64,000 nt of DNA, from positions 87,420,001 through 87,484,000 of the forward strand of contig OZ024742.1 in the NCBI GenBank assembly GCA_964016885.1. The letters are read 5' to 3'. The DNA is from Eledone cirrhosa (Eukaryota). The notes beneath the pieces were generated by a model. The model worked only from the letters and a program-made list of their open reading frames with translations, made no database searches and was not told the DNA's origin. The translations under genes were made by a program, and so were the position numbers. Positions 49,101-50,360 of this stretch are shown one piece after another; the stretch's first letter is position 1, and the number at the start of each line of letters is the position of its first letter.

Positions 49101-49337
49101 TACATATGTAGATGTACACTTTAACTTAATTGTTTAAGCGTCAGTCATACAAAAGTGAGTTAGAAGCGAAACAAAATTTAATTTCGTTTCGTTATTTGTT
49201 TTTATCGTTTCCGCTGAACCGGTGCGTACAATGACTCACGTTCTATGCAAATTAGTCTACCCACTACTAATTTTCATAGAAAAAGCAGATAACGATATGT
49301 GCTTTTACAATTCTCCAGAGAAGCCGGGAGATGGGTA

Positions 49338-49382
49338 AATATTGCTGATGAGATGTAATAACATCGAAACTAGTCCAATATT
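49338..49382 (+). ncRNA. intact type I hammerhead ribozyme (copy 1), predicted cleavage after C49375
   Basis: AAUAUUG-CUGAUGA-GAUGU AAUA ACAUC-GAAAC UA GUC^CAAUAUU: 7-bp stem I, 5-bp stem II, palindromic ACUAGU stem III. Confidence 0.92.
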
Positions 49383-49806
49383 CCTGTCTGGCTCTCTGGA
49401 GAATAGAGGAAATGTGTTTCCTTGAAAACTCGTATGACTCTAAAACCCGGTCCGTCTGTGTGGTTACATACAGACTAGCTGACACTCACTGTAAAGTGTC
49501 TAGTGAAAAACTCAGTACATGTACATATGTATACATGTGTGTATTTATATGCATACTAATACTTCCGTATACATATGTAGATGTACACTTTAACTTAATT
49601 GTTTAAGCGTCAGTCATACAAAAGTAAGTTAGAAGCGAAACGAAATTTAATTTCGTTTCGTTATTTGTTTTTATCGTTTCCGCTGAACCGGTGCGTACAA
49701 TGACTCACGTTCTATGCAAATTAGTCTACCCACTACTAATTTTCATAGAAAAAGCATATAACGATATGTGCTTTTACAATTCTCCAGAGAAGCCGGAAGA
49801 TGGGTA

Positions 49807-49851
49807 AATATTGCTGATGAGATGTAATAACATCGAAACTAGTCCAATATT
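49807..49851 (+). ncRNA. intact type I hammerhead ribozyme (copy 2), predicted cleavage after C49844
   Basis: Identical to copy 1, 469 bp downstream. Confidence 0.92.
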
Positions 49852-50360
49852 CCTGTCTGGCTCTCTGGCGAATAGAGGAAATGTGTTTCCCTGAAAACTC
49901 GTATGACTCTAAAACCCGGTCCGTCTGTGTGGTTACATACAGACTAGCTGACACTCACTGTAAAGTGTCTAGTGAAAAACTCAGTACATGTACATATGTA
50001 TACATGTGTGTATTTATATGCATACTAATACTTCCGTATACATATGTAGATGTACACTTTAACTTAATTGTTTATATATATATATATATATACAGACATA
50101 CCTACACCCACACGTACACACCCACATACACATTTAAACATATGCACATACGTATACACGTATAGACACTCACGTACATACATACATATATATATATATA
50201 TATATATATATATATATATATATATATATATATATATATACACGTGTAGACAAAGACATACATATTTAGAATCTATTTTAGCTCTAAGTTCTACACACGC
50301 TCAGACACACACACATACACACACACACACATGCACTCACATATATATATATATATATAT

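Follow-up and report, generated by a model that had tools for sequence, protein, structure and literature searches.

How does a short non-coding repeat with a ribozyme in every unit come to lie within a (TA)n microsatellite, and from what template was it copied? A tandem array in a 64-kb stretch of Eledone cirrhosa DNA (the window, by which we mean the whole stretch that was analysed) raises this question at a single locus. In general terms, the movement of retrozymes in animals and the choice between circular and linear templates in Penelope-like elements (PLEs) are posed as open in Frangieh 2024 (PMC11167929) and in the accessible text of Cervera 2020 (PMC7229834) and Li 2026 (bioRxiv 10.64898/2026.07.22.740005). 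The reading that we consider likely is that of a young dispersed hammerhead repeat with Penelope-type ends (family A), spread by the reverse transcriptase (RT)-endonuclease of a PLE, most likely the family termed N7 below, which copies around a predicted 469-nt circle.

The array extends over positions 49099-50074 (TRF: period 469, 2.1 copies, 98% matches). The initial annotation described two 469-bp units plus 36 bp set in (TA)n, with one hammerhead per unit, and both TRF and the periodicity of the sequence bear this out: exact periodicity spans 49099-50074, the stretches 49101-49569 and 49570-50038 differ at 6/469 positions, the final 36 bp are the start of the unit, and (TA)n is present on either side. 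The six differences all concern alleles that are rare in family A, and at unit position 293 both units have the subfamily allele. The features of the array are as follows.

48922..49100, no strand: left (TA)n microsatellite, the insertion target
49101..49569, plus strand: first 469-bp unit of family A, beginning at the variable 5' end of a single-armed insertion
49570..50038, plus strand: unit 2, with 6 differences from unit 1
50039..50074, plus strand: partial unit, stopping at unit position 36, the fixed 3' end termed S (short), where reverse transcription would have started
49137..49205, plus strand: "tail" segment from the S site (unit 31-36) to the T site (unit 105), with a second copy at 49606-49674
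49167..49191, plus strand: hairpin directly before the T site, retained in sister family B, its 3' side complementary at 17/20 positions to the N7 T end
49311..49403, plus strand: hammerhead 1 with extended, bulged stem I (core 49338-49382)
49375..49376, plus strand: cleavage site 1, after GUC, predicted from sequence
49376..49844, plus strand: predicted 469-nt monomer, branched and highly paired, with stem I holding the ends together
49780..49872, plus strand: hammerhead 2 with extended stem I (core 49807-49851)
49844..49845, plus strand: cleavage site 2, likewise predicted
50075..50093, no strand: right (TA)n

The units had been called non-coding, in agreement with a longest ATG ORF of 64 aa and the lack of any RT or GIY-YIG ORF in the unit; a search for tRNA found none, and the GC content is 0.315 for 48001-50000. 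Every unit contains a 7-bp stem I, CUGAUGA, a 5-bp stem II and GAAAC-UA-GUC, the C of GUC being at 49375 in unit 1 and at 49844 in unit 2, and a search of the minus strand of the unit found no hammerhead core. The description of this motif as a "flawless" type I hammerhead is justified for stems I and II and the core but not for stem III, which comprises only the A15.1-U16.1 pair, a further C-G pair having to close a loop of 2 nt, which is impossible, and the term "minimal" is not quite right, as stem I goes on for ~20 additional pairs past a bulge. It is this combination of a weak palindromic stem III and an extended stem I by which we liken the motif to canonical type I hammerheads. Rfam yielded no matches at gathering score within the 64-kb window; below that level there were two matches to Hammerhead_HH9 (32.9 and 32.4 bits, E 3e-6 and 5e-6, gathering score 52), and the microRNA matches at E-value level were discounted because their source is an AT-rich palindrome. 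The predicted monomer folds at -158.6 kcal/mol (z = -10.8 vs 100 shuffles), and as a circle the plus strand folds better than the minus strand (z -10.0 vs -7.1). At equilibrium, the palindrome of a two-hammerhead transcript has a pairing probability of 0.003; the double-hammerhead fold lies only 3.2 kcal/mol above the minimum, and forcing two single hammerheads instead costs a further 11.6 kcal/mol, so that in these models cleavage as a dimer via a double hammerhead would be plausible. A parallel in the accessible text of Cervera and de la Pena 2020 (PMC7229834) is the axolotl HHR_Amex1, which also has a single pair and a palindromic tetraloop in stem III and is efficient as a dimer; for Xenopus, the accessible text of Li 2026 (bioRxiv 10.64898/2026.07.22.740005) gives cleavage in only 1/9 dimers.

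The window holds further repeats of other kinds. Additional hammerhead-like cores, in other repeat families, are found at 21417 (+), 61035 (-) and 21984 (+), the last of which resembles the N7 motif. On the minus strand at 10402-14712 lie two adjacent remnants of non-LTR retrotransposons (open stretches of 665 + 260 aa and of 459 aa) with RT and a C-terminal restriction-like endonuclease motif, which we take to be CRE/R4-like.

A one-off local duplication, the outcome that would have spoken against a mobile repeat, is contradicted by the genome (3.0 Gb), in which the exact 41-nt core has 1,366 matches and its reversed control 0. These counts, together with the z-score of the fold, indicate that the hammerhead repeat is not a product of chance. 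In a similarity search, the 40 candidates scored out of 1,096 gave 214 matches, of which the full-length ones are 97-100% identical and lie on many contigs. We also found a sister family B, homologous to family A and aligning with it end to end, which has at least 23,532 core matches, the same kind of ends, a unit of ~420-540 bp with an internal (TA)n, a GUA cleavage triplet, and U-U at the base of stem II. It is represented at further loci (L141, L151-L170) and twice in the window.

32823-33158: family B sequence
54573..55428, no strand: older two-armed copy of family B

In 14 sequences from A and B the catalytic core and ACTAGT never vary, and in the hammerhead stems 15/34 pairs are changed on both sides between A and B, with 81.5% of cells paired vs 38-43% in slid controls, a covariation signal that mostly reflects one A/B split rather than independent events.

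In all genomic respects tested here, family A agrees with the initial assignment to the non-LTR retrozymes. The animal non-LTR retrozymes in the accessible text of Cervera and de la Pena 2020 (PMC7229834) likewise consist of short non-coding repeats in tandem, every one with its type I hammerhead and without an apparent LTR structure; they too have a low GC content (<50%), a strongly self-paired monomer and, where visible, duplications of >4 bp, and they occur alongside PLEs. Family A differs from them in its slightly longer unit (theirs are 150-450 bp) and in that its cleavage and circle are predicted only, whereas self-cleavage and circles have been shown for them. The class is thus already known; family A is a new family within it, and the new part is the insertion anatomy. 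Our literature searches, which largely covered sources other than subscription papers, Repbase/Dfam and the supplements of Cervera and Li, revealed neither a description of family A nor an analysis of insertion ends for retrozymes; insertion ends are likewise not analysed in the accessible text of Li 2026 (bioRxiv 10.64898/2026.07.22.740005). None of the 7 runs, from 4 studies, that were listed for the unit is an RNA run, which speaks neither for nor against expression. Runs labelled with three other organisms (X2-X7) contain 30-68% of the unit's words, a figure that refers to word content only. Identical insertions with identical flanks occur in two places in the case of L061/L062 and of L286/L287, by segmental duplication or assembly duplication.

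The ends of family A copies are informative in themselves. Genomic copies with permuted ends had been anticipated, and the 5' ends do vary, being evenly spread over the unit (where an alignment was split at the unit boundary, the lists of 5' ends contain some spurious "1" entries), but the 3' ends are fixed at two sites ~70 nt apart, S (unit ~29-37) and T (unit ~103-105), which rules out that copies are circularly permuted at random. In most insertions two arms stand head to head, and among complete two-armed insertions 75/83 combine one S with one T end while none is S+S. The first set of loci, chosen partly for best match to the window unit, contributes 36/42 (T+T 1, S+S 0, one odd end 5), and the second set, 60 loci picked by one end only (50 S, 10 T), contributes 39/41 (odd end 2, S+S 0). 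Both tallies leave out L068, which is a composite, and arrays that run beyond the fetched sequence; L062 and L287 are omitted as duplicates from most counts, L062 remaining among the 42, and segments of <90% identity are omitted from the first-set analyses of units, arrays, ends and haplotypes. Since independent choice of the start would give S+S and T+T often, the strict S+T pairing amounts to an added constraint. In the sole T+T insertion (L013/L198) one flank is the inverted copy of the other, and this locus is probably a secondary palindromic rearrangement.

T (long) ends joined to (TA)n number 2,190 in the genome, older subfamilies included; (TA)n-like sequence adjoins 77/109 3' ends of the first set, and an arm with at least two complete hammerheads is present in 57/126 records. 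Duplications of ~10-13 bp were read at five non-microsatellite sites (L058, L075, L077, L082 and L096), those in (TA)n being unreadable, also for the window copy. Fixed 3' ends, S+T pairing, (TA)n targets and 10-13-bp duplications make up the Penelope "tail" signature, and we regard it as very likely that PLE machinery moves family A. The window copy is a single S arm with its 5' end at unit position ~1, hence "two units plus 36 bp". This layout had been attributed to reverse transcription around a circle, a reading that the population of copies favours, although the extra 36 bp themselves reflect the fixed S end and an incidental 5' end. Unit positions 34 and 102 often show a target-like letter in terminal copies, as mismatched pairing between the RNA and a nicked (TA)n end would be expected to leave.

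Where the two arms meet, they overlap by at least 3 nt in 25/73 junctions. They halt at a nearly identical template position in 9/73 A junctions (3.9 expected, P 0.015) and in 5/15 N7 insertions (N7 loci L252-L256, L259), which points to fold-back or catch-up as the route taken by some of them. Two observations sit less well with the preferred reading. The lengths of the two arms show no correlation (rho 0.10, n 34), although two polymerases running together would predict one, and the tail differs in length between families, measuring 69-74 nt in A, 55-57 nt in N7 and about 62 nt in N1. Short arrays of family A look as if they were made in one insertion step.

Which element supplies the enzyme? 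A GIY-YIG search of the genome returned 10,596 candidates, of which 150 were scored; it revealed N1-N6 and others and missed N7. N1-N6 possess RT and GIY-YIG (three checked by Pfam), hammerhead-like motifs with a palindromic stem, and two ends in (TA)n. At L131-L150 and L171-L190 there are several PLE families whose hammerhead-like motifs have a variant core, UUGAAAA or UUGAUAA, and form stem III from the palindrome ACCGGU. N7 has a 4,286-bp unit with a 1,225-aa ORF; its fetched copies are 98-100% identical, 150/150 scored matches are 100% identical over 236 aa with no stop, and the exact long end occurs 11,941 times. N7 is thus very young and intact. All 15 complete two-armed N7 insertions among L241-L260 pair S with T. 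N7 is abundant, as illustrated at L243:1793-6078 (G000:C3 66.54-66.56 Mb), with up to three full tandem units and an inverted arm, and a miniature insertion lies in the window.

32580..32715, no strand: mini two-armed N7 insertion, T end left, S end right, 98-100% identical

A Pfam search of N7 found no RT or GIY-YIG match, and the family is therefore easily missed. It resembles N1 (BLASTP E 1e-15), and its Atlas neighbours have RT/HTH_animal/GIY-YIG (0.96-0.97). By its motifs and anatomy it may be an EN+ PLE of the Neptune/Nematis type, a type marked by RT, a C-x4-C-x2-C linker, a C-terminal GIY-YIG, a hammerhead-like 3'-end motif and PLE anatomy; the labels "Neptune/Nematis-type", "Hydra-like" and "CRE/R4-like" are drawn from motifs, in part as described in Craig 2021, rather than from a tree. 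N7 is accordingly a candidate PLE, on the basis of its similarity to N1, its motifs, its insertion anatomy and its Atlas neighbours.

Two of ~125 A loci are chimeric, and both keep the S+T rule. L191 sets an A arm with a T end opposite 41 nt of A plus 2.46 kb of N4 (S end), whereas in L194 it is the A arm that has the S end, and the opposite arm consists of 22 nt of A plus 2.44 kb of N7 (T end); in each the short A piece sits at the inner end of the PLE arm. Neither has a clean non-microsatellite duplication, and no chimera was found among the 60 new loci. The simplest reading is a single insertion during which copying switched from one RNA to the other, PLE and A; insertion beside an older PLE fragment followed by deletion is less likely, though easier to envisage for the N4 piece of L191, which carries a stop and frameshifts, than for L194. 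Of the last 20 nt of N7, 17 are complementary to the A T end (score 25, the six other families reaching 8-14; BLAST E 0.51, 31/5,000 shuffles, duplex -16.6 kcal/mol), a match that was picked post hoc among 7 families. Hydra-like ORFs located 180-220 bp upstream of A arms (L192, L092) were considered as partners and rejected, their junctions not being fixed. On balance, we lean towards N7 as the main helper of family A.

The template can be approached through the variants of the copies. At site 293, where the two alleles stand at about 40:60, all 39 loci of the first set are homogeneous, i.e. carry a single haplotype, as are 48/49 loci at site 413, 48/49 at site 410 and 44/44 at site 355. In the second set 540 site-locus pairs are homogeneous and 13 mixed, where 288 mixed would be expected if units were drawn independently, and 15 multi-unit loci comprise 7 haplotypes (loci of <97.3% in the first set and <94.5% in the second are omitted from these tests). 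Units within a locus differ by a median of 3 changes, yet pairs of unit-restricted variants never recur in another locus (0/255 in the first set, 0/114 in the second). One haplotype per insertion and no recurring variant pairs favour a bottleneck through a monomer, i.e. a circle. The predicted cleavage site is crossed by arms 246 and 145 times, with an indel in 1/145, and 5' ends within 3 nt of it number 1/110 (1.6 expected) and 1/102 (1.5 expected); the crossings and the lack of a pile-up of 5' ends argue that the template was not cut linear RNA. A monomeric circle as template is therefore, in our judgement, probable.

The crossings alone would equally fit PLE machinery that copies uncut linear multimers transcribed from a few homogeneous source arrays, a reading in which no circle is needed and the hammerhead is dispensable for mobility. 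Long near-homogeneous arrays that could serve as such sources exist (L091: 9 units, mean distance 0.9), and Frangieh 2024 (PMC11167929) found that hammerhead mutants have no effect on PLE insertion in vitro, that unprocessed RNA is the main substrate, and that no RNA-seq reads end at the cut site. In family A, however, 22 variants (67 locus events, first set) are fixed across all units and both arms, and each would need a monomer bottleneck; units do differ within a locus without sharing their variant pairs with other loci; and an invariant hammerhead core with covarying stems speaks against dispensability. We thus regard linear multimers as rather unlikely. An ordinary satellite or minisatellite, expanded at the DNA level and with the hammerhead as a chance feature or fossil, would explain least. 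Two long arrays (L083-L085, L086-L087) do have higher-order repeats, the mark of unequal exchange, which indicates later growth by that route. The first of them (L083-L085 with L200, G000:C1 from 95.62 Mb) has >80 units in higher-order repeats of about 7 units and is a retrozyme insertion becoming satellite DNA. Unequal exchange does not scatter copies of 97-100% identity over many contigs, nor does it produce fixed 3' ends, inverted arms, target duplications or chimeras, so that the satellite reading, to which we attach hardly any weight, is refuted for the origin of the dispersed copies and holds only for the later growth of long arrays.

A different origin would be an autonomous PLE outside those sampled, with the unit as its orphaned pLTR that was amplified from the element's own end according to the model of Li 2026 (bioRxiv 10.64898/2026.07.22.740005), in whose accessible text 24/57 Xenopus retrozyme families are homologous to Repbase elements, nearly all of them PLE ends. 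Sampling leaves room for such a source, given that only the 150 scored GIY-YIG candidates were surveyed and N7 itself escaped. Against it, at ~125 loci no A arm runs upstream into an ORF at a fixed junction, 0/70 PLE loci examined have an A- or B-like end in register, and comparison of A with the sampled PLE ends (N1-N7 and the L141-type element) gave no pLTR or 3'-end homology besides the 20-nt antisense match of N7. We consider this origin improbable: judged by sequence, family A appears to work like a non-autonomous PLE passenger, and its descent from a pLTR is not supported by the sampled PLEs. It agrees with the retrozymes in the accessible text of Li 2026 in having a non-autonomous relationship with a PLE partner and in ranging from monomers to long arrays; that text derives retrozymes from pLTRs and favours local tandem expansion by unequal crossover, whereas family A lacks pLTR homology to the sampled PLEs. 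Cervera 2020 (PMC7229834), as far as its accessible text goes, proposed PLE mobilisation from co-occurrence, to which the fixed ends, one-sided tail, inverted arms and chimeras found here point directly.

Copying of a circle by a PLE enzyme, the reading we prefer, could proceed as follows. Every hammerhead in a read-through transcript of an array would cleave, probably within a double hammerhead formed via the ACUAGU palindrome, and the product would be ligated into a circle. The PLE protein may then nick both strands of the (TA)n target ~10-13 bp apart, as suggested by the anatomy and by Frangieh 2024. The nicked ends would prime at S and T, respectively, with 2-6 nt of AT microhomology (the ends are observed), and each polymerase may copy a variable distance through the ligated junction, giving from zero to more than ten units. 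The two cDNAs would join head to head, often by microhomology as seen at the junctions, or one arm would be lost. The longest arrays were subsequently enlarged by unequal exchange.

This scheme has close counterparts among known elements. As in the EN+ PLEs of the accessible texts of Craig 2021 (PMC8557442) and Arkhipova 2013 (PMC3846280), there is 5' truncation, head-to-tail tandems, an inverted 5'-truncated arm, a tail on one end and an AT-rich or (TA)n target (with duplications of 8-10 bp in the PLEs); family A departs from them in lacking an ORF, in its tail of ~70 nt vs their 30-40, and in the short AT microhomology at both starts. In Frangieh 2024 (PMC11167929) both target strands are cut and extended by the PLE protein, and synthesis begins at two internal positions between which the tail lies, comparable to S and T in family A, although the strands there showed no difference in start site, while family A ends are strictly one S and one T. 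The non-autonomous Chlamys elements, e.g. MRC1 (Craig 2021, PMC8557442, accessible text), are also non-coding PLE passengers with multicopy head-to-tail insertions, but they occur in green algae, have no canonical hammerhead and, in contrast to family A, generally resemble the 3' end of the autonomous element.

Family A provides population-level constraints on this debate, namely strict S+T pairing, one haplotype per insertion and no stop at the ribozyme site, and it also shows probable template switches between retrozyme and PLE RNA inside one insertion. More tentatively, the PLE enzyme may copy ribozyme-made circles in rolling-circle fashion from two coupled primers at the tail ends, with the retrozyme as a separate parasite, not a pLTR remnant, that gains access to the active N7 particle because its RNA pairs with the N7 RNA end or mimics it. 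If true, coupled-primer rolling-circle copying would account jointly for the tandem arrays, the inverted arms and the one-sided tail. The presence of a near-identical, intact candidate helper, N7, in the same genome means that the whole cycle could be reconstituted in vitro using the published PLE assay.
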